From positions 5,354 to 69,353 of the forward strand of contig CAZWHQ010000004.1 in assembly GCA_964633715.1 (NCBI GenBank): 64,000 nt of DNA, written 5' to 3'. Source of the stretch: an uncultured Eubacteriales bacterium. Its GTDB lineage: Bacteria > Acidobacteriota > Aminicenantia > Aminicenantales > Aminicenantaceae. The notes under the pieces were generated by a model. The model had not been told where the DNA came from and did no database searches. It saw only the letters and a list, made by a program, of their open reading frames with translations. Position 1 is the stretch's first letter; every line of letters begins with the position of its first letter. Positions 14,410 to 62,237 of this stretch are shown here, piece by piece. The position numbers and the translations under genes were made by a program.

Positions 14410-14420
14410 AAAGTAAAACA

Positions 14421-15668: not shown

Positions 15669-15677
15669 GAAATCGAG

Positions 15678-34240: not shown

Positions 34241-35701
34241 CTATTTTGGCAGGACATCCAGACCGTTATTACGGGCATCAGCCAGCATGATGTCGTGCAG
34301 CTCTTTCTGTAAGGCGTCATCCAGGGGAGATTCAGAGGGTTCATTCAGAAGTCTGTTGACTTCATCGGCAGCTCTTTCAGCCATGGATTTTCTCCCGAGG
34401 GAAGCCCAGGTATCATAGGTGTCTCGGTCAATCATAAGAGGATAGGTGTGTTCTTCTTTGTACCATTTTCTTGTATGTGGAGTGGACAGGAATTCTGTGT
34501 CTTTTGTGATATTTTCAAACATATGTGTGGCGACTGGATCCTCTCTCTGGGTTATCCCTTTGACCAGCCTGAGGGCCATTCCGGCTATTTCATTATCGAT
34601 CACTAATTTTTCCAGGCTCTGGCAGCTTTCAAAATCCATCATACCCGGACCTGAAATCACGTTGATCCCGGATAGAGCTGCAAGAACGGCGCCGATACCT
34701 GTTTCCAATCCGGCCTGGTTGTCATTGATCTTGGCGTCACTCAATCCCATATAGGCATGGGTTGGTAAGTTAAGGTGTTTGGCGATTTGGGTATATCCTG
34801 AATCGATCATCATCGTTTCGATAGCTCCCATGGGAGTTGTGCCTTTTCGCATGTCGAAGCTGGAGGGGGATCCGCCGAAAATGACTGGTGCGCCTTGTTT
34901 GGCCAACTGGCAGATCACGAGCCCCGTGAGGTTTTCTGCCACGTGCTGAACGAGTGTTCCTGTAATTGTAATCAGAGATGTGGCTCCTGTCATACCCATA
35001 GAGATCAACTCAGAAGGGATTCCAGCCCGAGCGCTGTCAATTAAAGATTGGGTTGTCAGATTGCTCCATTTAAGAGGAGGGGAGGGGCAGGCATCAAAAA
35101 TGGCCAGGGGTTTTTCTGCAAGCTTTTCTTTACTGCCTCTGACCGCCACCATCATGTCAAACATGGGTTTAAATCCTTCCACGCGGAAGGTCCCTGTCAC
35201 TATGGGTTTTGTCGAATGTTGTAGTCCGATATACATCCTATATGAATCACTGATGAATTCAGGGACATCCTGGCTGATGAGCCCGGTGCTCTGGAAGTCG
35301 ATGTTTTTCAATTTGTCCGTCAATTTAACAAAATTGACGACGTCCACTGTAGTCGCTTTTCTCTGGGCTTGGGTCTTATGGTCAAGGATCGTAACGGCCG
35401 CAGAACCCGGATCGAAATGGACATCATCTTCCCCAACGATAAATTCTTTTTCTCCTGATCTGTCATAGAGTTTGATCACGGCCGGAGTTGTAGCCAGGGA
35501 ATCGTGGACGAGTTGGGGGGTCAGATAAACTCTTTGTGTCGAGGTGTCGACCTTCATGCCTGCTGCCTGAAAGAGTTCTTGTGCTTCTTCATTCTCAACA
35601 AAAATACCCTCTCTTTCGAGCAAGATCAAAGCTTCTTGGATGATCTTTTCGATCAATGCTGCATTGAGCAATTCCATTTTGGGTCTTACGGTATGATTCA
35701 T
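34241..35701 (-). CDS. MttB-superfamily methyltransferase: trimethylamine/glycine-betaine-type substrate:corrinoid methyltransferase, non-pyrrolysine form.
   Basis: 486 aa, with the TIM-barrel MttB-family pattern throughout. No in-frame amber codon, so this resembles the MtgB-like quaternary-amine methyltransferases rather than Pyl-containing MttB. Confidence 0.75.
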   Translation of the reverse strand: MNHTVRPKMELLNAALIEKIIQEALILLEREGIFVENEEAQELFQAAGMKVDTSTQRVYLTPQLVHDSLATTPAVIKLYDRSGEKEFIVGEDDVHFDPGSAAVTILDHKTQAQRKATTVDVVNFVKLTDKLKNIDFQSTGLISQDVPEFISDSYRMYIGLQHSTKPIVTGTFRVEGFKPMFDMMVAVRGSKEKLAEKPLAIFDACPSPPLKWSNLTTQSLIDSARAGIPSELISMGMTGATSLITITGTLVQHVAENLTGLVICQLAKQGAPVIFGGSPSSFDMRKGTTPMGAIETMMIDSGYTQIAKHLNLPTHAYMGLSDAKINDNQAGLETGIGAVLAALSGINVISGPGMMDFESCQSLEKLVIDNEIAGMALRLVKGITQREDPVATHMFENITKDTEFLSTPHTRKWYKEEHTYPLMIDRDTYDTWASLGRKSMAERAADEVNRLLNEPSESPLDDALQKELHDIMLADARNNGLDVLPK

Positions 35702-35726
35702 TTGTCTTGTCCTTTATTGAATTAAT

Positions 35727-37622
35727 TTATTTTTGAGTTTTTACAGTTGGGAACAATTTGACTTCGGTGTGAGGAAGAAATAAAGCCCCCGTATATTCGT
35801 TCATGTAGCGAGGTTCTGTATTCAATTCTAAATATGTCATCTTGTCAACAAGTTTTTCGATTTTTTCCCGGTTTTTATCGGACAGCAACACAAGCAGGGC
35901 GCCCAATAGAGAACTGTTTCCGACATAGTGAAATTTGTTTCTATCGAGATCTGGGAGGAGGCCAATGCGGATGGCATTTTCGACATTGAGATGCCGCCCG
36001 AATCCCCCGGCAATATAGACGTCAGCGATGTTGTCGAAGTCTATGCCTATGTTTTTAACGAGCAGCCTGCAGGCAGAAAATAGGGCACCCTTTGTTCGAA
36101 TAAGAGAAAGGATATCGTTTTCAGTGATGACCAGATCATGTCCCCAGAACGTGTCCTTTCCATCTAAAATAAGGAAAGCCAGTCCTTGTTCCGTATCCTT
36201 CAAATGTCCTTTTGTATTATCTGAAATAAACTTGCCGCTGCGGTCTATGAATCCGTAAATATAAAGTTCGGACAGCAGATCCACCAAACCTGAACCACAT
36301 AGTCCTCGAGGCTTACTGTTGTTGATTGTGCGGAATTCCAATCCTTTATCTCTATTCAATTTGACAGATTCGATCGCTCCATCTGAAGCCGGCATGCCGC
36401 ACCGGATCCCGCTGCCCTCAAAGGCTGGGCCTGCCGAACAGGCACAGGTCATCATCCAATCCATGTTCCCGATGACAAGTTCTCCATTTGTACCGGCATC
36501 GATAAAAAGCGAGATATCTTTGGCGTTTTTAAGCATGGGGGTGCTTAAAATTCCCGCTGTGATATCCCCCCCAACATAACTTCCCACAGCAGGGGCACAA
36601 AATATCCGGGCTTCTCTGTTCAGATCCAGGCCTATCTTTTCAGCGAGAACAATGGGGGCACGGTTAAATGTGGGGACATAGGGATCTTCTCGAATGAAAC
36701 GGGGATCACAATCGAGAAAAAGGTGGATCATTGTCGTATTGCCTGAAAATGAGCCATAATATATGTCTGAACAAGACAAGTTTGAACTCTTTGTGGCTTT
36801 GTGAATAAGAAAATTGATGGTTTTTATAATGAGTGTGTGAAGTTCTTTTTGGCGTTCCGGTTTCCGGGCGTAGTTGATTCTGGAAATGATATCTTCGCCG
36901 CATTTTATCTGCTGATTGAAGCTGGATGCCGTGCTGCAGATTTTCCCGTTTGTGAGGTCAACCAGATGAAGCGCCACGGTCGAAGTTCCAATATCGCAGG
37001 CGATACCGAGAACTTTTTTTTTAAGAGATACGGGGATAACATCGATGATAGAGTTTTCCAATCCGGCCGAAAACAAAATACAATCGACCTTATCTGGATC
37101 TTGACGAACGTTTTGTGACAAATTTTGGAGAACGGAAAAGGTGCTATTCCATTCCATCGGCCCGAGCTTTTCATCAAGTTTTTTCTCCACTCTCTTGAGC
37201 TCGCTGTAATTATTTTCCAGCGATGGAGGATCGAGTTTGAGGGAGATCTTCCTCACAGCAGGATTGACTTCATAGACACCCGAAATGCGGTCCTTGTTCT
37301 TGTTGAAATAGTCTGACTCAATCACACTCTGGATGGCCCGTTCATCAAAATGAGGGAGCTGGACAGTTAGGTTATCCTCGATCTTGGTCAAACAGGCCAG
37401 CACAAAACCTTTTGATAGAATATCATTGGGGAGTCCTTTGACGGAATTTTTAGACACAACTCCCTTTAAAATTTTTACACTGCAGTCTCCACACGTTCCT
37501 TCTCCGCCACAGGACGTCTTCATGGGTAGGTTTGCCTGTCTTATGGTCTCGAGGAGACCTGCCCCTTTATTGACCTCAACCTCTATCTCAAATGGGAGAA
37601 AGCGCACAGTGTATTTGTTCAT
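35727..37622 (-). CDS. Reductive activator of corrinoid proteins (RACo/RamA-like): an N-terminal [2Fe-2S] ferredoxin plus an ASKHA ATPase (DUF4445).
   Basis: N-terminal plant-type ferredoxin Cys pattern (CGGEGTCGDCSVKI...C), then a sugar-kinase/Hsp70/actin-like ATPase body. 631 aa, directly downstream of acsC. Confidence 0.8.
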   Translation of the reverse strand: MNKYTVRFLPFEIEVEVNKGAGLLETIRQANLPMKTSCGGEGTCGDCSVKILKGVVSKNSVKGLPNDILSKGFVLACLTKIEDNLTVQLPHFDERAIQSVIESDYFNKNKDRISGVYEVNPAVRKISLKLDPPSLENNYSELKRVEKKLDEKLGPMEWNSTFSVLQNLSQNVRQDPDKVDCILFSAGLENSIIDVIPVSLKKKVLGIACDIGTSTVALHLVDLTNGKICSTASSFNQQIKCGEDIISRINYARKPERQKELHTLIIKTINFLIHKATKSSNLSCSDIYYGSFSGNTTMIHLFLDCDPRFIREDPYVPTFNRAPIVLAEKIGLDLNREARIFCAPAVGSYVGGDITAGILSTPMLKNAKDISLFIDAGTNGELVIGNMDWMMTCACSAGPAFEGSGIRCGMPASDGAIESVKLNRDKGLEFRTINNSKPRGLCGSGLVDLLSELYIYGFIDRSGKFISDNTKGHLKDTEQGLAFLILDGKDTFWGHDLVITENDILSLIRTKGALFSACRLLVKNIGIDFDNIADVYIAGGFGRHLNVENAIRIGLLPDLDRNKFHYVGNSSLLGALLVLLSDKNREKIEKLVDKMTYLELNTEPRYMNEYTGALFLPHTEVKLFPTVKTQK

Positions 37623-37624
37623 GT

Positions 37625-38962
37625 TTAGGTTAGTTGGACATTTTTAACAAAAGATGGAATGTCCGAGGCCTCCTGGGGTCCCACGATGACCTCCCACCCC
37701 GGCAGGCTTTCTTCAAGATCTCCACTGATCTGTGAGACAAATCCTGGTATGACGATTTTCCGAGTTTTGACTTGATCTTCCAGTCCGATGTCTTTGATAA
37801 ATTTGGCAATGGTTTCCCCTACGAATTTTCCTGCGGCCCAGGCTGTAAGCACAGATTGGCCTTCGACATCCGTGATGACAAGGTGGGCCGATATTCCTGA
37901 GTTTTCAATCTCTCCTGAAACCATAAAATATGTGAGAGAAAAATTAGTGGTCACAAAAACAGGAGAATCGGGAGTGGGATCTCCGATCGGATAGATTCTG
38001 GGATCAACCTGAATGGGTTTTTGTGGATCGGTGAAAATGTTCTGACGCAAAGTAAACAAGGCATAGAGAAGCGCCTTGTTGTATTCGGGCAGTACGATGA
38101 TGGAATCGTATTTACACAAAAGCACAGACGCTTCGGCCAAAACATCATAAACAGAAGCACTTTGAATGTAGGAAAACAAAGGATAGCCAAAAGGTTTATA
38201 GCTGTTCTTCAAGGCACTTCGTCTCACTATGGTGTTGTTTTGGAGCTGGCGGCCTAAATTTTTCGCGTCCACATTGAGAATGAGGTCAGAAACACCCGCA
38301 GTGCGGGCCTTTTCAGACTGAGTTTTGAGGGATTCCAGAGAATCTGCAAAAAGGATAAGACTGGCGTTAAATGTTTTAGCCAGCACAAAATCTTCATCTG
38401 AGGCCGCATCTCTTAAGTAGATTGCCGGCCGAACGTCCTTGCATTTCTCCAGCCCTTTTTTTAGAAGTGTTGTGTCCTGGCAGTCGAGAATAATGCCTTT
38501 GGAGGACATATTTTGCACAGCATGGATGGTCTTGAGAAAATTGTCTTCATTTTTTGTGTTGTGCCGAATAAAAAACAGATCAATAAAAAGTTCTTCTCCC
38601 ACTCTTTCCACACGATAGTCCTCGAGTTCTTCAATTTTTTTCTTAAGATCGCCGATATCTTCTGAGGTGAGAAGTTCAATGGCGATTCCAGTCTGGTGAA
38701 AGAACGTTTTGTCATGCCGGAACAATACTGTTTCATTTCCGATTTCCAGCGTTTTGGCCCCGCCGATTTTAACCAATTTGATGGGAGGTTCACTGGCCGC
38801 ACCAAGAGAATCCTTTGCCTCATCTGAGGCAAAAGGACATTCGCCCAGTTCTGCTTTTTTCTGGGCCAGTTTCATGGCAAAGGCCATGCAGGTGGGGACA
38901 CCGCAGTCTCCACAGTTGGTTTTTGGCAGCAGTTTGAAGATATCCAGTCCAGAGAATGCCAT
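37625..38962 (-). CDS. acsC: Corrinoid iron-sulfur protein large subunit (AcsC/CdhE).
   Basis: N-terminal [4Fe-4S] motif CGDCGVPTCMAFAMKLA...C followed by a TIM-barrel corrinoid-binding body. 445 aa. Confidence 0.85.
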   Translation of the reverse strand: MAFSGLDIFKLLPKTNCGDCGVPTCMAFAMKLAQKKAELGECPFASDEAKDSLGAASEPPIKLVKIGGAKTLEIGNETVLFRHDKTFFHQTGIAIELLTSEDIGDLKKKIEELEDYRVERVGEELFIDLFFIRHNTKNEDNFLKTIHAVQNMSSKGIILDCQDTTLLKKGLEKCKDVRPAIYLRDAASDEDFVLAKTFNASLILFADSLESLKTQSEKARTAGVSDLILNVDAKNLGRQLQNNTIVRRSALKNSYKPFGYPLFSYIQSASVYDVLAEASVLLCKYDSIIVLPEYNKALLYALFTLRQNIFTDPQKPIQVDPRIYPIGDPTPDSPVFVTTNFSLTYFMVSGEIENSGISAHLVITDVEGQSVLTAWAAGKFVGETIAKFIKDIGLEDQVKTRKIVIPGFVSQISGDLEESLPGWEVIVGPQEASDIPSFVKNVQLT

Positions 38963-38963
38963 T

Positions 38964-39956
38964 TTAATTGTCCTTTTGAGTCAAAAACATGTCCTTAATT
39001 TTCCCTTTTACAGCCTTTACGGCTTCGGGGTGATACAGAATCAGGATGTCTGCTCCTGCAACCAGAAGGCTTATGGCGGTGGCGATTTCCCAGTGGGCGA
39101 GCCGTTCGGGAAGCTCCCCCCAATCGGGATTGGCCTCCATGTCTGTTCGGGCTTCTTTGATCAGGGACGTTTCATATCCGGGATTGACAAGCATCGGAGA
39201 TGAGAGCATCTTATCGCCTGAAAGACCATCTATCCGGATCCGTTCCATGATGGAGTAGGTGTACTCAAGTCCGTATCCGAGAGTTCCGGTCAGAGGATCC
39301 ATCACAATTCTATCCAGCGGAAAATCCATGTCGGCCAACAAGATGTTTAGCTGTTTGGCCAAGTTGACATCGATAGGGGATTGGGCCACAAGGGTGTGAT
39401 TGTAAGCGATGCACGCGGCGGCGATGGTTTTGTAGTTGTCTGTTTCGACAAAATTGAAAAGGCAGTTTTCTCCGGCCGTTATCTCACTAATTTTTTTCAT
39501 CACATTGTTGTTTTTTTCGAAATGGCTGTGACCGGTAATGATAAGAGGGACACTCACGCTTTGTAAAACATCCTGGACGATTTCAACCGCTTCCTCGACA
39601 CTCAAGTTTCCTTTTTCCGGGTGAGTCCCTTCCAGTCGTATTGAAATGAGATCGGCCCCATATTCATCGACACATTTCTTTGCCATTTCTCCTGGTTTGT
39701 CCAAGACGTCTTTAAAATAATCCAGCAGAGGCCGAGGGAATTTAGGCGGAACTCTATCAAAAACTTCCATGGCTACTACTGGAGGATAGGGAAATTGACC
39801 TTCAAAGAAATGGAAGGGCAGGGCCGTACTTCCTCCGACCGTCAAGGTAAAAGACCTGGTCCCGCCTAAATCGGCTGTGGCTCCAAGGCGGACGGAAACA
39901 ACTTGTCCTATATTGTTCTCTTTTGGGATTTCAAATACCATGGGTGTTGTCCTCAA
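38964..39956 (-). CDS. acsD: Corrinoid iron-sulfur protein small subunit (AcsD/CdhD).
   Basis: 330 aa with a pterin-binding-like TIM-barrel pattern. Position between acsC and cooC/acsB. Confidence 0.8.
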   Translation of the reverse strand: MRTTPMVFEIPKENNIGQVVSVRLGATADLGGTRSFTLTVGGSTALPFHFFEGQFPYPPVVAMEVFDRVPPKFPRPLLDYFKDVLDKPGEMAKKCVDEYGADLISIRLEGTHPEKGNLSVEEAVEIVQDVLQSVSVPLIITGHSHFEKNNNVMKKISEITAGENCLFNFVETDNYKTIAAACIAYNHTLVAQSPIDVNLAKQLNILLADMDFPLDRIVMDPLTGTLGYGLEYTYSIMERIRIDGLSGDKMLSSPMLVNPGYETSLIKEARTDMEANPDWGELPERLAHWEIATAISLLVAGADILILYHPEAVKAVKGKIKDMFLTQKDN

Positions 39957-39957
39957 A

Positions 39958-40713
39958 TTAATAATTTATAAAATTTTTCATCCATTTGTCGACAGCAAGT
40001 AGTGCCGGAGAAAAATCGGACAGTGTCCAGACTGACTCTCCATTTTTTTCCATGTCTAAAAGGGTGTTGTCTTCTGGGAGTGTCAAGCCCAATTCGAGGC
40101 GTTCTTCCTCGAGAGTCTGAGTTAATAAAGGTGGAACCTCTCCTTGAAGACGGTTGATAAATACGTCCTTCTTTCCAACTCGTATGTCCAGTTCACTCAA
40201 AAGACGGCTGATGTTTGCAGCTGTACGGATTCCTCTGACCGAGGGATCAGAGACAATGAGCAGGCGATCTATATTTAGGGTTGTTCGGCGGCTGAGGTGC
40301 TCCATCCCGGCTTCATTGTCGATGATGACATATCGATATTGGGCACTCAATGTCTGGAGAATATCCCTGAGGAGATTGTTGGCATAGCAGTAACATCCTG
40401 GTCCTTCCGGACGGCCCATAGCGATAAGGTCATAATCTGGTGTTTCCACAAGACTGGTCTGAATTTTATATTCGAGAAACTGGGCCTTGCTCATTCCTCC
40501 CGGAAGATTCGTAGGGTTCTGTTTCATTTCTTCTCTTATTGCTCCCACAGTGTCCTCAATCTCGAGTCCCAAAAGGACATTGAGATTGACGTTGGAATCG
40601 GCGTCGACGGCTAGAACAGATCTGCTTTTGTGTTGGCTCAACCAGCGGACCATCAGAGCAGCAATGGTACTTTTTCCTGTTCCCCCTTTTCCTGAAATAC
40701 CTATTGTTTTCAT
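39958..40713 (-). CDS. cooC: CooC/AcsF-type P-loop ATPase (nickel-insertion accessory protein, MinD/ParA superfamily).
   Basis: Deviant Walker A GKGGTGKST, 251 aa, between acsB and acsD. Confidence 0.8.
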   Translation of the reverse strand: MKTIGISGKGGTGKSTIAALMVRWLSQHKSRSVLAVDADSNVNLNVLLGLEIEDTVGAIREEMKQNPTNLPGGMSKAQFLEYKIQTSLVETPDYDLIAMGRPEGPGCYCYANNLLRDILQTLSAQYRYVIIDNEAGMEHLSRRTTLNIDRLLIVSDPSVRGIRTAANISRLLSELDIRVGKKDVFINRLQGEVPPLLTQTLEEERLELGLTLPEDNTLLDMEKNGESVWTLSDFSPALLAVDKWMKNFINY

Positions 40714-40724
40714 TGTTTTAGAAA

Positions 40725-42929
40725 CTAGAACAGAGGGGGCATGGAGAGTGCATGATGGTTGTTCTGTGTGATGAACTCCAGAACCTCTTCTTCGGTTATT
40801 GCAACTGTTTCATCGGCGATCGATTCAAAATAATTATCTATGCCTTGAGCTTTTCCGATATCCCGGAGAATAGATTCCAACTCTTCTTTAAGGCCTCTAT
40901 CCATCCAAACGATCCTTGGAGCGCCTCCCTCTGCGCTGATGAATTTTTGACTTCCGATATACTGCTTGCTGTGCCCGATAAATCCGGGTGTCTGGACTCC
41001 GCCTCCCACAGTTCCTGCCAGGGTCGAAAACTTCATGCCTATAGGTGTCATACCCATATAATCTCGATAGACTGTCATGATTCCATTTGTCGAAGGCAGG
41101 ATGCATGAAATGCACTCAAAACATCCACACGATGTCATGGGGAATTCGATGATGCTGTAGGCATTAAATGTATCCAAGGTTTTATGAGAATTGTTGTACA
41201 CAAAAGTGTTTATGTCCTGCCACTGCCCTTTGATAGGATCAGTGACTTTTCCCTTTTTTACGGGTTGGTTAGGGCCGGCCGGGCTGATTTGATGGGCCGC
41301 TTTGCCGTCCAACCAGTTGTAAGCACCGCACAATCCCGATCGCTCGGGGGTGATGATACAGATGTGATTTGGCGCAAATGACTGGCACAGCGCACAGGAA
41401 TAAAATGTATCGACAGCCTCATCGGTCATATTGGCCAGGCGAGCATCCCGATGGAGATACACTTCGCGGGCCTTTCCGATAAGAGTTTTGACGTCTTTTT
41501 CCACCGTGTATATTCTGATCTGGACCTTGTCGAAGATTTTTCCGAATTCACCATGGAGTTTGGCATGGAGGATAGAACCGAAATGACGAAATTTAAATCC
41601 TTTATCCTTTGTATCCTTTCCGATCCGGATCCAGTTGATATCCCTTTGGCCCATATGAAACACGCCGTTGGCGGCATTGATAAAATCATGTATGTGGCGC
41701 TCGAGAATGGGTTCAAAATCTGTCTGCATTTCACGCCCTGCCACTTCGGCCCAGATTCCGATGGGGATTTTACTCCCTGAAGGGACCTCGTCGATTTCCG
41801 GACCAATCACCTCAATTCTTCCGTCTTCGACTTCATCGAGTTCCTTGGTGGTCAAATATTCAAATCCCAGTTGTTCCTGCCCGCCCAATTCCACATACAT
41901 ATCTTCTTTCCTGATCCTTTCCCCCTGGAAAGCGGGTCCATAGGGGACAGGAATGGGAACTTTGGTGATGTTGAGTTTGAGTCCTCTGACCTCGATCGCT
42001 TTGGCGACAATATTGTCCAATGGGACAGGAGAGACAACATGCTCATAGGTGCAGATGCCTGAAGGAAGAATTTGATCGATATCTGTCTCCGAAATTGTGG
42101 GAAACCCAAAATTGAGGGTGCCTGCTGCCTGGGCGTGTTTTTCTTCGTCAACTGGTCCCAGTGCCAGCACAAAAGCGAACACGCGGTTTTTATTGTAGCG
42201 GAGAACTCTCTGGAAATCTCCTGGTTGTGCCCCTCCAAAGGAGAGGGCAACCCGCGTGGCAAAACCCAGAGAATGAACGGTGGCAGCCACATCATCACCA
42301 AAAGGAACGAGGCGTGTGTCCCAGCCCAACTGAATGCCTTCTTCGTGGAGCTGAGTGGCCATGGATTTTCCGTTTATCCCTGCTGACATAAACACATACA
42401 AGTTTTTTTCTTGAAGTTCGCGCGCAATTTTAACCGCCAGTTCATTAGTGGAACAGCAGCCAACACAGGCGGCAAATCCCGGAGCCGTCCCATCCACAAA
42501 CTCGATGCCTCGCTCGCGCATGATGACATCATTGGCTGCGCCCAGCCAGAGTTGGCTGGCGTCGGGGGTTGTTGTTGTAAGATAGGGAAGAGGAGTCTGT
42601 ATGTACTTGATGGCCTCGATGATTTCATCGGCAAACAATGTGGCCATTCCTGCATCCAGTGTGTGTCCGAGAAAAGGGAGCCATTTTTCCTTTTCCGGGA
42701 TTGGAGGAAGAAGATTCTGGGCTTCCTGGAGCAGCTCTTGAAGACCTGCTAAAGTTTCGATTTTCAGGCCAAGTATCCCGTGTGAGATGGGTAAAAAGTA
42801 GCCTGTATTGGGGAACTCGACTTTGGTCTCAGGGCTGTTGTTGACGATCGCTAATTTGAGTTCTTTTTCTGCACGGGAGACCAGGTTATGAGCACCTTGG
42901 ATGGCTTTTGTTGCGATGATTCTTGACAT
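40725..42929 (-). CDS. acsB: Acetyl-CoA synthase, bacterial-type (AcsB/CdhC; A-cluster subunit).
   Basis: 734 aa. Cys-Gly-Cys A-cluster bridging motif (SCGCFEC) plus the upstream Cys ligands. Bacterial length class. Confidence 0.9.
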   Translation of the reverse strand: MSRIIATKAIQGAHNLVSRAEKELKLAIVNNSPETKVEFPNTGYFLPISHGILGLKIETLAGLQELLQEAQNLLPPIPEKEKWLPFLGHTLDAGMATLFADEIIEAIKYIQTPLPYLTTTTPDASQLWLGAANDVIMRERGIEFVDGTAPGFAACVGCCSTNELAVKIARELQEKNLYVFMSAGINGKSMATQLHEEGIQLGWDTRLVPFGDDVAATVHSLGFATRVALSFGGAQPGDFQRVLRYNKNRVFAFVLALGPVDEEKHAQAAGTLNFGFPTISETDIDQILPSGICTYEHVVSPVPLDNIVAKAIEVRGLKLNITKVPIPVPYGPAFQGERIRKEDMYVELGGQEQLGFEYLTTKELDEVEDGRIEVIGPEIDEVPSGSKIPIGIWAEVAGREMQTDFEPILERHIHDFINAANGVFHMGQRDINWIRIGKDTKDKGFKFRHFGSILHAKLHGEFGKIFDKVQIRIYTVEKDVKTLIGKAREVYLHRDARLANMTDEAVDTFYSCALCQSFAPNHICIITPERSGLCGAYNWLDGKAAHQISPAGPNQPVKKGKVTDPIKGQWQDINTFVYNNSHKTLDTFNAYSIIEFPMTSCGCFECISCILPSTNGIMTVYRDYMGMTPIGMKFSTLAGTVGGGVQTPGFIGHSKQYIGSQKFISAEGGAPRIVWMDRGLKEELESILRDIGKAQGIDNYFESIADETVAITEEEVLEFITQNNHHALSMPPLF

Positions 42930-42931
42930 CC

Positions 42932-44866
42932 TTAAATCTCCAGGTCTCTTCTCATCTCCATATCATAGAGCACCCGTTCTTTCCCTTTACTGATACCTAG
43001 GGCCTCTCTTTTTTTGTCTATGTGGTCGATCATCAGTTCGGCCATTTTTTTAGGATCGGGTTCGACCGCCCATTTTCCTCCAAATAGGCTTTCAAAATCA
43101 CCAAAGATAAGACGGCAAAATTTATCGCTCCCTGTGACAGGGAGGCCTACGCCAAAAACAGTAAAAACTCCGGAAGCGACAAAATACTGGCCGATAGAGA
43201 TGGCTTTTTCGCTCATCCATTCGGGAGCGGCGCCGGCCACGGGCAGGTCTGAAATGTCTTCTCCCAATCCTCCTATTTTGACCATTTCGGACAAAGCCAT
43301 AAGGATACGGCTGTTGTCCACACAGGAACCGGAATGGAGTACGGGCGGCATGCCCACAGCTTTGCAGACTTCAGCCAGCCCCCTTCCAGCATATTTTTCA
43401 GCCGATTCGGGAATAAGATAGCCGGCTTTAGCGCAAGCAATAGCGGAACAGCCTGTCTGGACAACAAGGATATCATTGGCGATGAGCTCCCGGACTAAAT
43501 CCACATGAGCCTTATCGTGAGTGACCTTGGGATTACAGCAGCCGACAACTCCGGCCACACCCTTGATCCGGCCGTTGATGATGTTGTCATTAAGAGGAGT
43601 ATAGGAACCACGAAACTTGCCTCCCAACATATAGATGATTGCCTCGTGGCTGAATCCTGCGATCAGATCCATCTTTTCTTTGGGGATTTCCACCTGTTCC
43701 CTGTTGGGAAAATTGAGAATGGCGGTTTTGACGATTTTCTTAGCGGTTTCGTACGCGTTTTTGTCACCTAATTCATAGTATTCGGCGCCGGGGATCTGAC
43801 CTTTGCTCGATGTCGTGATGATCTGAGTGTGGAAACATTTACACAATTCCGGGAGTGCGGGCATGATGCACTGCACATCGACAATCATAGCATCTACGGC
43901 TCCTGTGCTGACTGCCAATTCCTGTTGGAGCACATTTCCTGCTACAGGGAGGCCGTGGCGGAGGAGAATCTCGTTGGCTGTGCAGCAGATTCCGGCAAGG
44001 TTAATGCCTGAGGCCCCGTTTTCTTTAGCCAGGTTTATAAGTGTCTTATCCTGAGCAGCCAGCACGAGCATCTCTGAGAGTACAGGTTCATGTCCGTGTA
44101 CGACAATATTCACCTCTGTTTCAGAAAGAACGCCCAGATTGACTTCTCCCCGGAGAGGGGAGGGTGTTCCAAAAAGGATATCCTGAAGTTCGGTGGCCAC
44201 CATGGAACCTCCCCAACCGTCGGCAAGGGCCGTTCGTGCCCCCTGGAGCATGATGTTTTTTGGATCGTGGTCCACTCCCATGGTTGTCCGGTGCATCATC
44301 TCGACGACTTCACGGTCAATCCCTCTGGGAGACACACCCAACTTATGCCATAAAGCCTGGCGGTTATCGGGAGCCATTTTGAGGAAATCCAACTCTCCTT
44401 CCTGCCTTCCGAAATTTTCGAGAGTTTCTTCCGCCACATCACGTGCGATATCTTCAGTCCTTCTGTCCTTTATATTGATTCCCAGTGTCTGCGCGATTGT
44501 ATTGAGCTTAACCTTGTCTTTTATTGAATAGGGAGATTCGGGATTGGTGGCTGCCTCGAGCAGTGTTTGAGCGACATCTCTGCCGTGGTCGGAATGCGCC
44601 GCCGCTCCTCCTGCGATTTTGCGTGCAAAATTGCGGGCTATGATCACCTCGGCGGTGGCCCCGCAAACTCCCTGTTGAGGGCTTTTGCCTTTTGGGTGGA
44701 TACGGCAGGGGCCCATGTAGCAGTTATTGCAGCAAAGCCCTTGTTCACCAAAACCGCAGTGTGGAGACTGTTTTTCAGCCCGGTCCCAGATTGTTTCGAT
44801 CCCTTTTTCGGCCGCTCTTTCTAGGGTTTGCTGAACTGTTTTATCGATACTTTTTTTCTCAGACAT
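42932..44866 (-). CDS. acsA: Ni-dependent anaerobic carbon monoxide dehydrogenase catalytic subunit (CooS/AcsA).
   Basis: N-terminal B- and D-cluster Cys motif (HCGFGEQGLCCNNCYMGPCR); 644 aa; hybrid-cluster/CODH family pattern. Confidence 0.9.
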   Translation of the reverse strand: MSEKKSIDKTVQQTLERAAEKGIETIWDRAEKQSPHCGFGEQGLCCNNCYMGPCRIHPKGKSPQQGVCGATAEVIIARNFARKIAGGAAAHSDHGRDVAQTLLEAATNPESPYSIKDKVKLNTIAQTLGINIKDRRTEDIARDVAEETLENFGRQEGELDFLKMAPDNRQALWHKLGVSPRGIDREVVEMMHRTTMGVDHDPKNIMLQGARTALADGWGGSMVATELQDILFGTPSPLRGEVNLGVLSETEVNIVVHGHEPVLSEMLVLAAQDKTLINLAKENGASGINLAGICCTANEILLRHGLPVAGNVLQQELAVSTGAVDAMIVDVQCIMPALPELCKCFHTQIITTSSKGQIPGAEYYELGDKNAYETAKKIVKTAILNFPNREQVEIPKEKMDLIAGFSHEAIIYMLGGKFRGSYTPLNDNIINGRIKGVAGVVGCCNPKVTHDKAHVDLVRELIANDILVVQTGCSAIACAKAGYLIPESAEKYAGRGLAEVCKAVGMPPVLHSGSCVDNSRILMALSEMVKIGGLGEDISDLPVAGAAPEWMSEKAISIGQYFVASGVFTVFGVGLPVTGSDKFCRLIFGDFESLFGGKWAVEPDPKKMAELMIDHIDKKREALGISKGKERVLYDMEMRRDLEI

Positions 44867-44966
44867 GAAGATTTTCCATCCGGATCGGTATTTTTAAAAG
44901 AGGTCAATTATAGCCTATTTTTTAAAGGTTGCCCAATGATTTTTAGAAAAGAGGTGTAGGATGTCT

Positions 44967-46019
44967 CTAAAAACGGAGCTGCTGGCTGAGGCGGGATAAT
45001 TCCTGGAAAATTTTATTCGATAATTCCACAGAGAGTGAGCCGGTTCCGCAGCTGGGTGTGAGGAGACATTGATCCCATATCAGATCCTTATCTATCCCTT
45101 TCTCTGCCAGATTGTCGATTCGCTCTTCCAGTTTTTTGTGCAATGAGCCGGTTGTCTCGACTTTAATTTTTTCAGATGTCGGGACGATTCCCCAAGCGAT
45201 AACACCCCTCTTTTCCAGAAAACCTTTGACCTGTTCGGGATAATAACCGATTGTGTCGCCGAATTCATAGGCGTCAAAACTGATGATGTCCACACCGGCA
45301 TCGATCAGTATAGGCCATTCTGTGTTCCCACAGCAGTGGGTGCCGACAAGAGCTCCTTCCTGATGAATAGCTTCGACCACTTCATTTAAATATTCGACCA
45401 CGTCTGCTTTCTGGAGACTGACATAGGTCGAAGAGCCAAAGGCCGACAGAATGGGTTCATCGACAAAACAGATTTGTTTAAATCCGAAGTTTTTGAATCT
45501 GTTCAGAAGCCAGCGGGCCTTCATTATGATCCCTTTGACCACCGTGTCCCTGAAGACGTCATTGTAATAGATGGCGCGTTTATTCTCATCAACGGTGGCC
45601 AGTCCAAAAGTGATAGGTCCTGTGACCTGGTGTTTGAAGAAGAGCAGGGAAGGGGGAAGCGCTGCTTTTAATTTTTCTTCCATGGCATAGAGCCCGCGGC
45701 TGAATTCGGGTGAAATACGGAAATAGTCGAGATTTTCCATTACGAAGTTTTCATAAAATTTTTCCAATTCACTTGTGGGATCCCCACTTGTGTCAATGAT
45801 CATCTTACTTTTGGCTTCATCAAGCACTACACATGGAAGACCTTCACTGTACTGGATTTCCATCTGCTCGCGAAAATTTGCATTAGACAACTGCGGCCAG
45901 ACTGGGATTTCGGGAATTGTCTCGAGGATCAGGTCACAAACCTTTCCGGCATCCAGATCAGGAAAACTCCCAATGCCGGTTGCCAGGCACTTTGGAAAAA
46001 ATGTCATTCTCTTCTCCAT
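44967..46019 (-). CDS. URO-D/CIMS-like zinc methyltransferase (core-MetE/MtaA-like; methylcorrinoid-dependent methyltransferase candidate).
   Basis: 350 aa. Zinc-site-like H-C-C (GTHCCGN) and CG (TPSCGTG) motifs resemble the C-terminal domain of cobalamin-independent methionine synthase and MtaA-type methyltransferases. Confidence 0.55.
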   Translation of the reverse strand: MEKRMTFFPKCLATGIGSFPDLDAGKVCDLILETIPEIPVWPQLSNANFREQMEIQYSEGLPCVVLDEAKSKMIIDTSGDPTSELEKFYENFVMENLDYFRISPEFSRGLYAMEEKLKAALPPSLLFFKHQVTGPITFGLATVDENKRAIYYNDVFRDTVVKGIIMKARWLLNRFKNFGFKQICFVDEPILSAFGSSTYVSLQKADVVEYLNEVVEAIHQEGALVGTHCCGNTEWPILIDAGVDIISFDAYEFGDTIGYYPEQVKGFLEKRGVIAWGIVPTSEKIKVETTGSLHKKLEERIDNLAEKGIDKDLIWDQCLLTPSCGTGSLSVELSNKIFQELSRLSQQLRF

Positions 46020-46798
46020 TTATTGGAATTATCCCCAATGAGAGAGTAGATGGTTTGAAATTCTTTTTTCAACAGAGAGTCCAGGTTGTCGTAGAGAGGC
46101 AAGCTGTCCCTATCAGAATGGCTGATGATCTGGCTGAAGGAGATTCTACCAAGGTACAAGTTCTCTGAAAATTGTTTCTGTATCCATAAAGCTTGATCTT
46201 TGTCCTGAATTTTATTTCCAATGACATTGAATTTTTCTATGCCGATTTCTTTGCCAAGTTTAATGATGGTTTTGGCCGTCTGGATGCTTCGCAGCCCGGG
46301 TTCTACGACGATAACCATGGAGTCTATAGACTGAGCGGTCGCTCTTCCCAGGTGCTCGATACCGGCTTCCATATCCACGATGATAATTTCATTTCTATTG
46401 AGCAAAATATCGGACAGGAGACTGCGGAGAAGGACATTTTCAGGGCAGGCACATCCATCCCCACCTTTTATTATGCCTCCCATTACTAAAACCTTGATCC
46501 CATGTACAGAAATACAGAAATTTTCGGGGATGTCACTGACAGTAGGATTAAGTTTAAATAGCTGCCCAAACTGCCGTGGCCTGGCTCCTGTGCGCTCCTG
46601 GATCAGCTTTCGCTGAGCAGAAATAGGGGAAACTGAAGCCAATAGTTCTTGAGATGCCCCTATGGCTTCTGCGAGGTTAGCATCGGGATCGGCATCTACG
46701 GCCAGTACCTCAAATCCGCTTTTTTTAAAAAAATGAGAAAGGACAGCAGCAATGGTTGTTTTTCCAGTCCCGCCCTTTCCCGTAATGGCTATCTTCAT
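46004..46798 (-). CDS. Second CooC/AcsF-type P-loop ATPase (Ni-insertion accessory).
   Basis: GKGGTGKTT Walker A; 264 aa; paralog of the 39958-40713 gene. Confidence 0.8.
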   Translation of the reverse strand: MKIAITGKGGTGKTTIAAVLSHFFKKSGFEVLAVDADPDANLAEAIGASQELLASVSPISAQRKLIQERTGARPRQFGQLFKLNPTVSDIPENFCISVHGIKVLVMGGIIKGGDGCACPENVLLRSLLSDILLNRNEIIIVDMEAGIEHLGRATAQSIDSMVIVVEPGLRSIQTAKTIIKLGKEIGIEKFNVIGNKIQDKDQALWIQKQFSENLYLGRISFSQIISHSDRDSLPLYDNLDSLLKKEFQTIYSLIGDNSNKWRRE

Positions 46799-46916
46799 CC
46801 AGTTATTCTAGAGAAATAAGTATATTTTATCAAATTTAGTAATCCTTCTTTACATTAAAATTGGGATATGGTAGATGAAGGGGGAAGAATAAAAAATTAT
46901 ATGTGAGGAGGAGCAA

Positions 46917-47552
46917 TTGGCAATATTAGAAGATTTGGCAGCAGAAGTTGTAAAAGGAGATGCAGATGCGGCAAAAAACCTTACAGAAGAAGCCTTAAAC
47001 CAGAATACATCGGCGGGAGATATTCTGAATTTGGGTTTGGTTGCGGGTATGAATGTTATCAGTCAGCAGTTTAAGAATAATGAGATTTTTATTCCAGAGG
47101 TACTAGTGGCTGCAAGAGCTATGAAAGCAGGAATGCAAATAATCCGTCCTCTACTCGCAGAGGCCAAAGTGGAATCCTTGGGGAAAATTATCATTGGCAC
47201 ATGCGGAGGAGATTTGCATGATATCGGAAAAAACATTGTCGCCATGCTGCTGGAAGGAGCAGGATATGAAGTCATAGATCTGGGTGCAGATGTTCCCAAG
47301 GAAAAATTTCTGGAGTATGCAGAAAAAGAAAATCCTGATGTTTTAGGAATGTCAGCTCTTCTTACAACAACGATGGTGTTTATGAAGGGGATGGTTGAGG
47401 CTCTTGAGGAATCCGGACTCAAGGAAAAAGTCAAAGTAATTATTGGCGGAGCACCCATCACACAATCCTATGCGGATGAAATCAGAGCGGATGGTTATGC
47501 ACCCGATGCCGCTTCAGCTGTGGATCTGGTTAAGGCCGTGATGGGAAGTTAG
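46917..47552 (+). CDS. Corrinoid (B12-binding) protein of methyltransferase systems (MtgC/MttC-like). Uses a TTG start.
   Basis: N-terminal helical cap and a Rossmann B12-binding domain with the DxHxxG motif (GDLHDIGKN). 211 aa. A GGAGGAG RBS precedes the TTG. Confidence 0.8.
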   Translation: MAILEDLAAEVVKGDADAAKNLTEEALNQNTSAGDILNLGLVAGMNVISQQFKNNEIFIPEVLVAARAMKAGMQIIRPLLAEAKVESLGKIIIGTCGGDLHDIGKNIVAMLLEGAGYEVIDLGADVPKEKFLEYAEKENPDVLGMSALLTTTMVFMKGMVEALEESGLKEKVKVIIGGAPITQSYADEIRADGYAPDAASAVDLVKAVMGS

Positions 47553-49315
47553 GATTGGGCAGGAAAGTCTAAAGAATCCACAAAATATTCCTGGAACTGG
47601 ACATCTGTCGCCAGGGAGAAAAACACAACTTTTTTTGAGAGAGCGACAACGTCTGCGCGAAGCGGGGCTGAAATCAGCAGGGCCTTTGCACCGGCTATCG
47701 AAGAATTTCCGACAAAATGGATTTTTTCTTCAGGAATCGGTGGCAAAAGACCGATTTGAATACTGTTGGAGATGTTCAAATAGTTCCCGAAGGCTCCTGC
47801 GATAAATATCCCATCAAGAAGATCGAGAGAGAGGCTTTTTTTCTCCATTATCATCCTGATTCCTGACCTGACAGCGGCCACGGCGAGCTGAAGTTCCCGA
47901 ATATCTTTTTGAGTAAGTGATAGATCTGGAGTCAACTCGATTTTGCCGGATTCATTCAAAATTTTTCCCTTTTGAGACAATAAGCCCAAATTAAGAGCAA
48001 CAGCCACGGCGTCGATCAAACCGGTCCCGCAGATGCCAAGGGCAGGTTGGCCCTGGACAGTCTCCATCTGAACAGGGTTGAGGTTTCTGACTTTGAAAAT
48101 TGCCCCCGGTAAAGCCAGCATACCGCAGCTGATATTCATCCCCTCAAAGGCCGGCCCGGCAGCCGTGGATGTGGCGACACTTTCTGTATCTGTTTTAAGA
48201 ACGATTTCTCCGTTTGTCCCAAGGTCGATAAATAGAAAATTTCCTTTTTTATTAAAAAGGTCAGACGCGATAAGACCTCCTGATATATCTCCACCAACAA
48301 AACTCTGGATATTCGGGACAATAAAGAGTTTGCCGCTGTGATGGATTTCAAAACCAATCGAGTTCGCCGGTAATTCAGGCAGAGATGAAAACAGGGCATT
48401 AAAAGGGGTTTGGGATAGGGTCTCAAGAGGAAGTCCAAGCAGTATATGGTTCATGGTTGTATTGCCGGAAAGAACGATCTCATAGACATAAAATGGGGGG
48501 ATATGGTGCTTGGAGAGGATTTGAGCGATTTTTTGATTGAGGTTTTCGAGGACTGTTTGTTTTAGTTCTTCCAGGTTGGATTTTCCGGAAATGGAAAAGC
48601 CTATTCTGGAGACGACATCGGCTCCGAATTGAGACTGGCTGTTTTCTGAGGCTATCTTGTCGATACTTTTCCCCGAATTGAGATCGATAAGTTCAACAAC
48701 AAGTGTTGTTGTGCCCAAATCGATTGCAATCCCATAACAGTGATTTGATGTATTGCCCTCTTCAATGGCGATAATTTCACTGTTTTTATGAATAACGGAT
48801 GTGATTTTGTATTGGTTTTTTTCGAGGATTGGATGCACTGTTTTAAGCAGTCTAAGAGGAACAGACAATTTTGTGTTCTTTAAGCTCTTTTGGAAAAGTT
48901 CAATGAATGACTGGGGTTCGGCAAGTGTGGGTTTTGGCAGTTGGATAAAAAACTTTTTTACTGAGGGATCCAAAGTCACAGGTGTTTTAACACCGGATTT
49001 CAAAATGTTCTGTTTTTGCAAAAGAGATTCTTCAGGAATATCAATTTTTAGATCGCTCTTGATATGAAAAAGACAGGCAAGTCGATATGTTTTTTCTAGA
49101 TTTTTCTCCATAAGAAAGGATTCTTCCTGTTCCCCTAGAGGGGCGAGGTGGCCATCGATAATATTTACCAGGCATTTTCCGCACACTCCAAGAAGGCCGC
49201 AGTCTGACCGTAGATTTATCCCTGCTTTTTGTAGGGCATCTGCAAGGAGAGTATCCTCTTCGACAGAAATTGTTTTGTTTAAGGGAAATATTTCGATGCT
49301 GAATTTCTGGCTCAT
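47549..49315 (-). CDS. Second RACo/RamA-like corrinoid reductive activase ([2Fe-2S] ferredoxin + ASKHA ATPase).
   Basis: N-terminal ferredoxin Cys pattern (CGLLGVCGKC...C), DUF4445-like body, 588 aa. Convergent with the corrinoid protein gene, overlapping it by 4 nt. Confidence 0.75.
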   Translation of the reverse strand: MSQKFSIEIFPLNKTISVEEDTLLADALQKAGINLRSDCGLLGVCGKCLVNIIDGHLAPLGEQEESFLMEKNLEKTYRLACLFHIKSDLKIDIPEESLLQKQNILKSGVKTPVTLDPSVKKFFIQLPKPTLAEPQSFIELFQKSLKNTKLSVPLRLLKTVHPILEKNQYKITSVIHKNSEIIAIEEGNTSNHCYGIAIDLGTTTLVVELIDLNSGKSIDKIASENSQSQFGADVVSRIGFSISGKSNLEELKQTVLENLNQKIAQILSKHHIPPFYVYEIVLSGNTTMNHILLGLPLETLSQTPFNALFSSLPELPANSIGFEIHHSGKLFIVPNIQSFVGGDISGGLIASDLFNKKGNFLFIDLGTNGEIVLKTDTESVATSTAAGPAFEGMNISCGMLALPGAIFKVRNLNPVQMETVQGQPALGICGTGLIDAVAVALNLGLLSQKGKILNESGKIELTPDLSLTQKDIRELQLAVAAVRSGIRMIMEKKSLSLDLLDGIFIAGAFGNYLNISNSIQIGLLPPIPEEKIHFVGNSSIAGAKALLISAPLRADVVALSKKVVFFSLATDVQFQEYFVDSLDFPAQS

Positions 49316-49440
49316 TACCCCATAGTGTATTGCATTATTGTTCTGTTTGGCAAGATTTTCTGTTTTACGTAAAAGACAAATGATTCAAGTTTTAGTACAC
49401 TGGAGTTGAAAAAGGAAAATTTGAAAAAGAGGAGTTTGCT

Positions 49441-49788
49441 ATGCCAATGAATTTGAAAAGTTATGTCATCGATGGCTATGTTATTGAGATTTTTAGCATT
49501 GATAAACGGGGGAAGAGAACACGTTGGGGAGACAAATTGATTAAACTGTATTCGGAAGGAAAAAACGTTGGGCAGGCTGTATTTGCATCTGAAGGAGAAA
49601 GGCCACCGGAGCCTTATCACTCAGAAGAAAAAATCTATTATTTTGCCCCCTCCAGCCAGTATCAGGTTATCCTTGATCTTCTGAGAAATATGGAAGCAAA
49701 TCCTGTATATTTTGCATGGAGACCTACGAATGATCCGAAGGAAACCAATGATGGGGATGCTGTATTCTACACAGATCAAATTAAATGA
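49441..49788 (+). CDS. Hypothetical protein of 115 aa.
   Basis: An AGAGGAG RBS upstream; no recognisable motif. Confidence 0.4.
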   Translation: MPMNLKSYVIDGYVIEIFSIDKRGKRTRWGDKLIKLYSEGKNVGQAVFASEGERPPEPYHSEEKIYYFAPSSQYQVILDLLRNMEANPVYFAWRPTNDPKETNDGDAVFYTDQIK

Positions 49789-58159: not shown

Positions 58160-58654
58160 TTGAAAACCACAGATCCTGTAATGGATTCCCCGAAAGGTTT
58201 GAAGAGGCGTCTGGGTCTGCTTGATTCCACGATGATGATGATGGGAATTGTCATCGATTCCGGGATTTTTCTCACGACTGGGATCATGGCCAGGGATGGG
58301 CTTTTTTTTAAAAAAGTGGCACGGATTCATCCACGCTTCAAAACTCCATCGATCTCAATTTTTTTACAAGGATTATGGGCCTGTATTTTGACATTATCCG
58401 GGACATTCGAACAGCTTTTTACGTTTGCCATGTTTGCCGGCATTATTTTTTGGGTGGCTGCAGCCGCCTCAATTTTTGCGCTGAGGAAAAAAGCTCCACA
58501 ACTTCCAAGACCCTATAAAACTTGGGGGTATCCAGTGACTCCTCTGATCTTCATCGTTGTTCTAACAGGGATTCTTGTGAACACTCTTTTTCAAAAACCC
58601 GTAGAATCCTTGGCGGGAAGTGGATTGGCTTTGTTAGGGGTGCCAGTGTACTAA
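58160..58654 (+). pseudogene. Remnant of an APC-family amino-acid permease with a large internal deletion: the N-terminal first-TM region is fused directly to the last C-terminal TM helices.
   Basis: The N-terminus LKRRLGLLDSTMMMMGIVIDSGIFLTTGIMA matches the APC first helix. It is followed at once by RDGLFFKKVARIHPRFKTPSISIFLQGLWACIL..., which matches the APC C-terminal region. Only 164 aa versus the expected 440-480 or so. Confidence 0.55.
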
Positions 58655-62195: not shown

Positions 62196-62237
62196 GATAA
62201 GGATTCAAGGGGTCAAGAATTCAGGGATTCAAGTGCT
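62196..62237. repeat. Left arm of an imperfect inverted repeat of about 40 bp, built from GGATTCAAGG-like sub-repeats, flanking the four-helix-bundle gene.
   Basis: gataaggattcaaggggtcaagaattcagggattcaagtgc is the near reverse-complement of the right arm at 62598-62637. Confidence 0.7.

Follow-up and report, generated by a model that had tools for sequence, protein, structure and literature searches.

A CODH/ACS gene cluster without acsE joined to an MttB-family methyltransferase gene in Aminicenantes: a possible methyl-corrinoid hub

Gene content and layout of the locus

The window examined here is a stretch of 64,000 nucleotides from contig CAZWHQ010000004.1 of an uncultured member of the Aminicenantes. 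It holds a bacterial acs cluster, specifying a CO dehydrogenase/acetyl-CoA synthase (CODH/ACS) and the corrinoid iron-sulfur protein (CFeSP), directly followed by the gene of a homologue of the methyltransferase MttB. The pterin-binding methyltransferase AcsE is absent from the cluster. The original prediction, made from the letters of the window alone, had proposed that methyl groups of methylated amines pass through a corrinoid protein to CFeSP and ACS or, alternatively, that methyl groups are routed to methionine. Open reading frames (ORFs) were taken from an ORF listing of the window, with a minimum length of 120 aa for positions 1-28000 and 100 aa elsewhere, and genes were called by scanning them with Pfam and NCBIfam profiles. 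All of the genes named in the prediction are supported by these profiles at their coordinates. The locus comprises the following features:

47549-49315, minus strand: RACo2, a corrinoid reductive activase of the RamA type (PF00111, PF17650, PF17651, PF14574)
46917-47552, plus strand: small corrinoid protein CorP', B12 cap and B12-binding domains (PF02607 and PF02310; DLHDIG at residue 99)
46799-46916, no strand: divergent intergenic region, likely operon promoter (sigma-70-like consensus matches only)
46004-46798, minus strand: CooC2, Ni-insertion ATPase of the CooC/AcsF type (CbiA, AAA_31 and ParA P-loop matches)
44967-46007, minus strand: MesB-like protein, putative core methionine synthase, 346 aa from the second Met (44967-46019 for the 350-aa version; zinc ligands, gene position)
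42932-44866, minus strand: CooS/AcsA, catalytic subunit of the Ni-CODH (PF03063, 2.7e-171; TIGR01702, 661 bits, cut-off 478)
40725-42929, minus strand: AcsB, acetyl-CoA synthase, the A-cluster subunit (PF18537, PF03598, PF19436; NF040764, 1015 bits, cut-off 800)
39958-40713, minus strand: CooC1, maturation ATPase of the AcsF type (P-loop CbiA and AAA_31 matches)
38964-39956, minus strand: AcsD, small subunit of CFeSP (PF03599; NF003376, 385 bits, cut-off 280)
37625-38962, minus strand: AcsC, large subunit of CFeSP with an N-terminal 4Fe-4S motif (PF04060 and PF03599; NF003195, 512 bits, cut-off 306)
35727-37622, minus strand: RACo1/AcsV, ATP-dependent reductive activase of CFeSP (four RACo Pfam domains; NF040756, 648 bits)
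34241-35701, minus strand: non-pyrrolysine methyltransferase of the MttB superfamily, 486 aa, last gene of the putative operon (PF06253, 1e-87)
34645-34744, minus strand: match to Rfam PYLIS_3, the mttB pyrrolysine insertion sequence (44.2 bits, gathering score 38)

The core of the bacterial acs cluster is complete: CooS/AcsA, AcsB, AcsC and AcsD each score above their NCBIfam cut-off, and AcsB possesses a Cys-Gly-Cys motif at residue 601. The reductive activase of CFeSP is present as AcsV/RACo, and maturases are present as two CooC-like P-loop ATPases. For RACo1 the best NCBIfam model is AcsV, at a score below the model cut-off of 800 bits. The four domains of RACo2 are the 2Fe-2S ferredoxin, linker, middle and ASKHA domains.

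On the minus strand, the genes follow each other over about 12.5 kb in the order (5′ to 3′) cooC2, mesB-like, cooS, acsB, cooC1, acsD, acsC, acsV, mttB-like, with intergenic gaps that range from -16 to +25 bp and reach 100 bp only ahead of cooS; the last gene begins 25 bp past acsV. Two sigma-70-like sites lie on this strand just 5′ of cooC2, at 46923-46896 (11 of 12 consensus positions) and 46833-46805 (10 of 12), and are among the strongest of the scan, including its best; the consensus scan revealed no terminator-like site between the operon genes on the coding strand. Because of the short gaps and the promoter-like sites upstream of cooC2, the nine genes look like one operon. The corrinoid protein gene is divergent from cooC2, and the RACo2 gene converges on it.

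The absence of acsE from the cluster, as originally predicted, is borne out by two kinds of search. The scanned ORFs of the 64-kb window include no match to PF00809/AcsE, no protein of either the PF00809 or the PF01208 family (pterin-binding or URO-D-type second methyltransferase, MT2) and no folate one-carbon gene outside the locus. The pterin domain of E. coli MetH, used as a tblastn query over 1.53 Mb (the window and related loci), gave only 27-aa matches inside acsD, and E. coli queries for the MetH-type pterin domain, MetF and FolD found no homologue in 1.5-1.6 Mb of loci. Some 30 related clusters are likewise devoid of a pterin-binding AcsE, and hold no gene without assignment that could be acsE. 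With respect to the three-component corrinoid systems, the window encodes a first methyltransferase (MT1, the MttB homologue), a corrinoid protein and, as activase, RACo2; an MT2 was not found in it. The MesB-like protein is the sole candidate there for unloading the corrinoid protein.

The MesB-like protein and the MttB homologue

The gene between cooC2 and cooS had been described as a CIMS/URO-D-like methyltransferase. The gene is there. Its 346-aa product shows only a weak match to Meth_synt_2 (E 9e-4). Residues H228, C230, D249 and C324 are invariant in 15 MesB-like homologues, together with a DEP motif, and hhalign places the DEP and HxC motifs on the C-terminal (catalytic) domain of E. 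coli MetE. The protein consists of a single catalytic barrel of the MetE type, from which the folate-binding half is absent. In Dehalococcoides core-MetE, also called MesB (PMC7857596), the zinc ligands are His215, Cys217, Asp236 and Cys312 (PMC7005905); the ligand spacing is +2, +21, +97 in that enzyme and +2, +21, +96 in the window protein, and the two have the unusual Asp ligand in common. A search of 1.84 billion representatives yielded 421 clusters at E < 1e-30, including one from Methanomassiliicoccales (38% identity, 247 bits), an order reported to possess MesB only (PMC7857596). A sequence search of the PDB found no relative, and the AlphaFold model, built from a 15-sequence alignment, is poor (pLDDT, the model's predicted local accuracy score, 48).

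The position of the gene is equally characteristic. It lies directly 5′ of cooS in all eight relatives in which the position can be read (L003, L084, L086, L096, L100, L102, L107 and L109; related loci are cited by their L numbers), and mesB has been reported to cluster with Wood-Ljungdahl genes (PMC7857596). CooC2 homologues, 58-63% identical, precede it in L084, L096, L100 and L102, and the position of CooC1 between acsB and acsD is kept in all related clusters. Given the zinc-ligand spacing, the alignment of its motifs to MetE, the Methanomassiliicoccales match and its place upstream of cooS, the protein is most likely a MesB-type core methionine synthase.

The MttB homologue matches PF06253 over its full length (E 1.1e-87, residues 7-472 of 486). 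It scores 397 bits against TIGR02369, the model for pyrrolysine-type trimethylamine MttB, whose cut-off is 525, and it is approximately equidistant from Desulfitobacterium hafniense MtgB (220 bits; 2QNE/9YCE) and Methanosarcina barkeri MttB (206 bits; 7XCL). Pyrrolysine was considered for this protein and rejected: the equivalent codon, number 320, is TTG (Leu), and 93 orthologous stretches have Leu or Met at this position, and TAG in none. The PYLIS_3 match starts exactly at codon 320, which is one base from TAG, and the same match occurs in the L052 orthologue. We take it as a trace of coding-sequence ancestry shared with true mttB genes, not as a working element.

Glycine betaine, one of the methyl donors originally suggested, is also unlikely as a substrate and was rejected because the ligands are not conserved. 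MtgB binds betaine through Y97, R312, H348 and F356 (PMC13080624); the aligned residues are S100, H315, S350 and E358, so that none of the four is retained. Within the Aminicenantes family there is little or no variation at these four positions. The orthologues are 65-100% identical across 80 genomes, most of them named Aminicenantes in their records, and the family as a whole is highly conserved, with a mean column identity of 84% (13 orthologues) and 525 confirmed matches. The nearest named homologues of the MttB protein, of the 346-aa protein and of the homocysteine methyltransferase found in relatives come from metagenome-assembled genomes of Candidatus Aminicenantes/Acidobacteriota.

There are no pyl genes in the window. 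In four related loci (L052, 11494-16307 and 16.9-18.3 kb; L063; L067; L074) a pyl set is found directly 3′ of the MttB orthologue, consisting of a pylS-like gene, a second corrinoid protein, pylB, pylC and pylD, and in L081 only the pylS-like gene is found. The pyl-bearing relatives also carry a dimethylamine methyltransferase (PF09505) with an in-frame TAG exactly at the pyrrolysine position (L074, 17911-17970); that of L052 has an Rfam PYLIS_2 match at the TAG site.

Linkage and composition of the MttB module in relatives

Two samples of related loci were assembled. Searching with RACo1 of the window found 18 metagenome contigs, 15 of which extend at least 1 kb downstream of acsV, and 80 loci with an orthologue of the MttB homologue (65-90% identity) were compared by means of tblastn and ORF clustering. 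The MttB module stands directly after acsV in 11 of the 15 acs clusters, at gaps of 33-153 bp. Viewed from the other gene, an acs cluster is found directly upstream in 13 of the 54 informative MttB loci; the remaining 41 have none adjacent, and so the module does not depend on an adjacent acs cluster, being found alone in about three quarters of the informative loci. In a neighbour-joining tree of MttB the acs-linked copies fall into at least five clades, and the linkage persists across RACo1 identities of 59-85%. Since 11 of 15 clusters are linked and the linked copies span at least five clades, the adjacency on which the original prediction was built is conserved in relatives, and the genes are probably co-transcribed.

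The form of the link varies. RACo1 is 50-84% identical to the RACo which ends the acs cluster in relatives. In the clade of the window, a gap of 25-40 bp separates acsV from MttB without an intervening corrinoid-protein gene; at approximately 60% RACo1 identity the link runs through such a gene (CorP). L096 and L100 exhibit a nested order: RamA-type RACo, CooC2, MesB-like, CooS, AcsB, CooC1, AcsD, AcsC, AcsV, CorP, MttB. Other variants have a homocysteine methyltransferase, with or without a methyltransferase dependent on S-adenosylmethionine (SAM), inserted before CorP. In L107 (10920-14147) the acs-mesB cluster ends with a homocysteine methyltransferase, after which an opposite-strand URO-D/CorP/URO-D set replaces the MttB module; its two URO-D proteins are MtaA/CmuA-like and flank the corrinoid protein. 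L086, and the lineage of L097-L099 with its 50-53% RACo1 identity, possess no such module.

With regard to its composition, a corrinoid protein is encoded within 1.6 kb upstream of MttB in 58 of 68 informative loci. A protein of about 200 aa of the PF02965 family (MetH activation domain) adjoins MttB in 37 of the 80 loci, two sampled members scoring 39 and 32 bits against a gathering score of 25, and a stand-alone homocysteine methyltransferase (PF02574) is found in 17 of the 80. A RamA-type RACo lies upstream of MttB in 12 of 54 loci. Since relatives carry these MetH-like homocysteine-binding and activation-domain proteins, the usual sink of the module would also be methionine. The other recurrent neighbours, none of them pterin-binding, include ParAB, an APC permease, a short-chain dehydrogenase (SDR), galactokinase and a BNR/sortilin-like protein. 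Downstream, the relatives have in common with the window a 900-aa BNR protein, c5, an M14 peptidase and TldD, irrespective of whether an acs cluster is present, from which it follows that the module sits at a conserved chromosomal site.

The corrinoid protein and activase of the window have separate histories. RACo2 is 43-49% identical to the RACo upstream of the CorP-MttB modules of relatives and approximately 29% identical to the AcsV-type RACo1. CorP' is approximately 43% identical to the MttB-adjacent CorP of relatives and 70% identical to a protein of L024 (717-1352), and by this comparison is a different paralogue from the usual CorP. As judged from gene order, the lineage of the window lost the CorP gene which normally precedes MttB and has the paralogue between RACo2 and cooC2, in inverted orientation. 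Because its nearest relative in L024 lies beside a different MttB paralogue, CorP' may have been recruited from another methyltransferase system. In L024 (717-6525) the neighbours are a sodium symporter of the SNF family (sodium:neurotransmitter symporter), a DUF885 protein and the MttB paralogue in question, a distant one at 31% identity. That a small corrinoid protein was retained, if by replacement, speaks for a continuing need of MttB for one, and against the mere use of CFeSP.

The remainder of the window encodes nuo genes, peptidases, a sugar ABC transporter and similar functions. A run of complex I genes at 11606-18785 specifies the 20-kDa, 30-kDa, 49-kDa, 24-kDa-like, 51-kDa and 75-kDa-like subunits, NuoH and a 4Fe-4S subunit, and is followed by proteins with a metallo-beta-lactamase fold and a PilZ domain, not by more membrane-subunit genes. 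The similarity of a 164-aa ORF at 58160-58654 (plus strand) to amino-acid permease profiles is confined to their C-terminal part (approximately 302-409 of 427), and the ORF may be a truncated or frameshifted transporter gene. At 62221-62592 (minus strand) lies a 23S rRNA intervening-sequence family protein (PF05635), which also matches the bAvd-like family PF22296, a family linked to diversity-generating retroelements. Next to RACo2, a 101-aa ORF at 49315-49620 (minus strand) has no Pfam match and overlaps a 115-aa ORF at 49441-49788 (plus strand), which is called in the JGI record next to a small HTH_17 gene and recurs near the MttB modules of L019, L020 and L034; the minus-strand ORF is probably spurious and the plus-strand ORF the conserved gene. 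The JGI record in question (3300002231, contig KVRMV2_100031634; L001/L083) matches the window and its MttB protein is 100% identical. Its cooS, acsD and RACo1 are each broken into two or three gene calls by apparent frameshifts, and it has one ambiguous base; the window copies are intact, and the window is therefore a cleaner assembly of the same or a nearly identical population.

Methyl flow, alternative explanations and known systems

We propose, tentatively, that the operon is a folate-independent methyl-corrinoid hub draining into methionine. It would join two corrinoid-based methyl-transfer modules, neither of them requiring folate. In the first, CODH/ACS and AcsCD, kept active by AcsV, would interconvert acetyl-CoA with methyl-Co(III)-CFeSP and CO/CO2, and the MesB-type enzyme would methylate homocysteine from the corrinoid, a step which has been proposed for Dehalococcoides. 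In the second, the MttB homologue would move a methyl group from an N-methyl donor, which is probably neither glycine betaine nor trimethylamine used by the pyrrolysine mechanism, onto the small corrinoid protein kept active by RACo2. The hub would draw on two methyl sources, acetyl-CoA and an N-methyl compound, and homology points to methionine as its sink. The flow would presumably run in this direction, with CorP' as the likely partner of MttB in the lineage of the window, and the small corrinoid protein and CFeSP/ACS may exchange methyl groups as well. Of the two routes in the original prediction, that to methionine has become the better supported: a protein with the MesB zinc-ligand pattern heads the acs cluster, and the MttB module of relatives is accompanied by MetH-like proteins.

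Several observations weigh against this proposal. To maintain an entire CODH/ACS and two maturases for the methyl groups of methionine alone would be costly, which hints at a larger flux in the form of acetyl-CoA synthesis or cleavage. The window is devoid of the homocysteine methyltransferase and activation-domain genes which tie the MttB module to methionine in relatives. L107 and L109 carry a MesB-like gene and a MetH-type homocysteine methyltransferase in one cluster; the idea that the two methionine enzymes are simple alternatives was rejected because of these loci. Neither the window nor eight related loci contain a SAM or B12 riboswitch which would mark methionine regulation. If acsE and the folate methyl branch lie elsewhere in the genome, the term folate-independent would fit the cluster only, and not the organism. 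It is the coexistence of the MesB-like and MetH-type enzymes in relatives, together with the riboswitch result, which keeps our confidence tentative.

A different outcome of the same gene content, which we consider doubtful, would be that MttB functionally replaces AcsE by loading CFeSP, either directly or by way of the small corrinoid protein. Its methyl donor would be an N-methyl compound or, with lower probability, a methylated pterin, and acetyl-CoA would be formed from a methyl compound and CO2 without the folate branch. If it is so, MttB would feed N-methyl groups to ACS, CooS would provide CO from CO2, tetrahydrofolate would be bypassed, and the gain to a fermenter would be an electron sink together with additional ATP. 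Such a scheme, which we also regard as unlikely, would account for the failure to find acsE in the window or in some 30 clusters, or any pterin-binding protein, MetF or FolD homologue in 1.5-1.6 Mb, and for a full CODH with maturases, unlike the situation in Dehalococcoides. It would fit the gene order: in 11 of 15 clusters the MttB module closes the acs operon at its 3′-end, directly past acsC-acsV, and in the clade of the window no CorP gene separates acsV from MttB; the URO-D/CorP/URO-D set at the same end in L107 suggests that this end collects methyl-donor systems. However, the passage of methylamine methyl groups through a corrinoid protein to CFeSP/ACS, the route first emphasised, gained no direct support: 41 of 54 loci are without adjacent acs genes, and the recurrent partners of MttB are MetH-like parts, not ACS. 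For these two reasons the scheme is less likely than the methionine hub. The separate small corrinoid protein and activase encoded in the window also argue that MttB uses this corrinoid protein and not CFeSP, and apart from the methyltransferases of the AcsE type no enzyme is known to methylate CFeSP physiologically.

It is likewise improbable, in our estimate, that the organism runs an ordinary Wood-Ljungdahl pathway, with acsE, metF, folD and fhs located elsewhere, MesB acting as a shortcut to methionine and the MttB module an independent neighbour whose proximity is kept by shared ancestry or loose co-regulation. The 64 kb of genome visible here leave room for this; the Wood-Ljungdahl pathway is complete in many of the bacteria that possess MesB (PMC7857596), and Aminicenantes have been described as putative acetogenic heterotrophs (PMC6472368). 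The module also stands at its conserved spot with or without acs, and the adjacency could therefore be inherited. Yet none of the related clusters examined contains acsE. Canonical bacterial clusters place this gene together with acsCD. AcsCDE have been treated as the bacterial methyltransferase module (PMC6305446). Furthermore, the same-strand gaps of 25-150 bp and the nested order RamA...CorP-MttB point to co-transcription rather than mere proximity, and the linkage persists at 59-85% RACo1 identity and in at least five MttB clades.

That MttB is a non-orthologous replacement of a pterin module (AcsE or the folate domain of MetH), passing methyl groups from methyl-tetrahydrofolate or a methylated pterin to the small corrinoid protein and CFeSP, is very improbable: MttB does sit at the place of that module, since the split-MetH-like cluster has homocysteine, B12 and activation parts with no pterin part and the acs cluster has no acsE, its conservation (84%, 525 matches) is that expected of a housekeeping enzyme and its betaine-binding residues are not conserved, but every characterised member of the superfamily has a small methylated or quaternary amine as its substrate (PMC8604678, PMC13080624), a normal MetH, dependent on folate, is also present in Electryoneota genomes with this cluster (PMC9324843), which would make a methyl-folate donor redundant, and the presence in some relatives of pyl genes and a pyrrolysine dimethylamine methyltransferase beside the orthologue fits methylamine metabolism better.

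The hub proposed above can be compared with several known systems. Zhuang reportedly described in 2014 an incomplete Wood-Ljungdahl pathway in Dehalococcoides mccartyi. Like the window, D. mccartyi possesses AcsB and AcsCD without acsE (Deobald 2020, PMC7005905; Price 2021, PMC7857596), and its core-MetE/MesB resembles the window protein in being a single-barrel methionine synthase of approximately 340 aa with a His-x-Cys...Asp...Cys pattern, which takes its methyl group from a corrinoid. By comparison, the window adds CooS, two CooC proteins, the MttB homologue, a small corrinoid protein and a RamA-type activase, and belongs to the Aminicenantes, whereas Dehalococcoides is a member of the Chloroflexota. 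An MttB/split-MetH-like cluster in other phyla was presented by Williams et al. 2022 (PMC9324843) as a hypothesised corrinoid-dependent methionine synthase, its methyl donor being unspecified. Relatives of the window carry exactly this cluster, with an MttB lacking pyrrolysine; from the window itself the homocysteine methyltransferase, the CorP beside MttB and the activation-domain gene have been lost, which leaves the MttB homologue and a corrinoid protein that is a paralogue. The main-text passages of that paper found by term search contain no mention of a fusion of the MttB module to an acs-mesB operon.

For MtgBCDE of Ruegeria pomeroyi, experiments have established that methionine synthesis can draw on the same corrinoid protein as an enzyme of the MttB family (Mausz et al. 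2025, PMC12478193). The Ruegeria system has a RamA-type activase, as does the window, and a homocysteine module of the PF02574 family. It differs in that Ruegeria is an aerobic alphaproteobacterium with a pterin-binding, bidirectional MtgD, tetrahydrofolate dependence and glycine betaine as the substrate, and has no CODH/ACS. MtgBCA of D. hafniense and MtpB/MtcB/MtyB with MtqC/MtqA of Eubacterium limosum resemble the window in that their MT1 belongs to the MttB superfamily, their corrinoid protein is small and their activase depends on ATP; the hosts, too, have CODH/ACS. In these systems the methyl group is transferred to tetrahydrofolate by a pterin-binding MT2, and the genes are not known to form part of the acs operon. 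In the window, by contrast, no pterin-binding MT2 was found, and the betaine ligands of MtgB are replaced. The canonical acs cluster of Moorella thermoacetica comprises acsA, acsB, acsC, acsD, acsE, cooC and acsV; the window has AcsA/CooS, AcsB, AcsC, AcsD, AcsV and CooC with their typical domains, but is without AcsE and has the mesB-like gene at the head and the MttB homologue at the tail of the cluster.

Each part of the arrangement has a precedent: MesB with acs (PMC7857596), MttB with split MetH (PMC9324843) and the shared corrinoid protein (PMC12478193). Their joining in one operon appears to be new; no description of an acs-MttB operon, or of its conservation in Aminicenantes, was found in the open-access literature, and the supplementary tables of Price 2021 do not mention Aminicenantes.

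The traffic of methyl groups at an acetyl-CoA synthase without AcsE is understood, as a proposal, for Dehalococcoides alone, and the function of the large non-pyrrolysine MttB clade found beside MetH-like genes is a second puzzle. Here both puzzles meet in one probable transcription unit, in an operon conserved across many sediment Aminicenantes, and a defined set of about six proteins (the MttB homologue, CorP', RACo2, AcsCD, AcsV and the MesB-like protein) is available for reconstitution. If methionine is the sole sink, the Dehalococcoides model would extend to a second phylum and a second methyl source. Aminicenantes are widespread in anoxic sediments; if methyl groups do reach ACS and the replacement of AcsE by MttB is true, it would constitute a new methylotrophic entry to the acetyl-CoA pathway, independent of folate, with a bearing on carbon cycling in such sediments.

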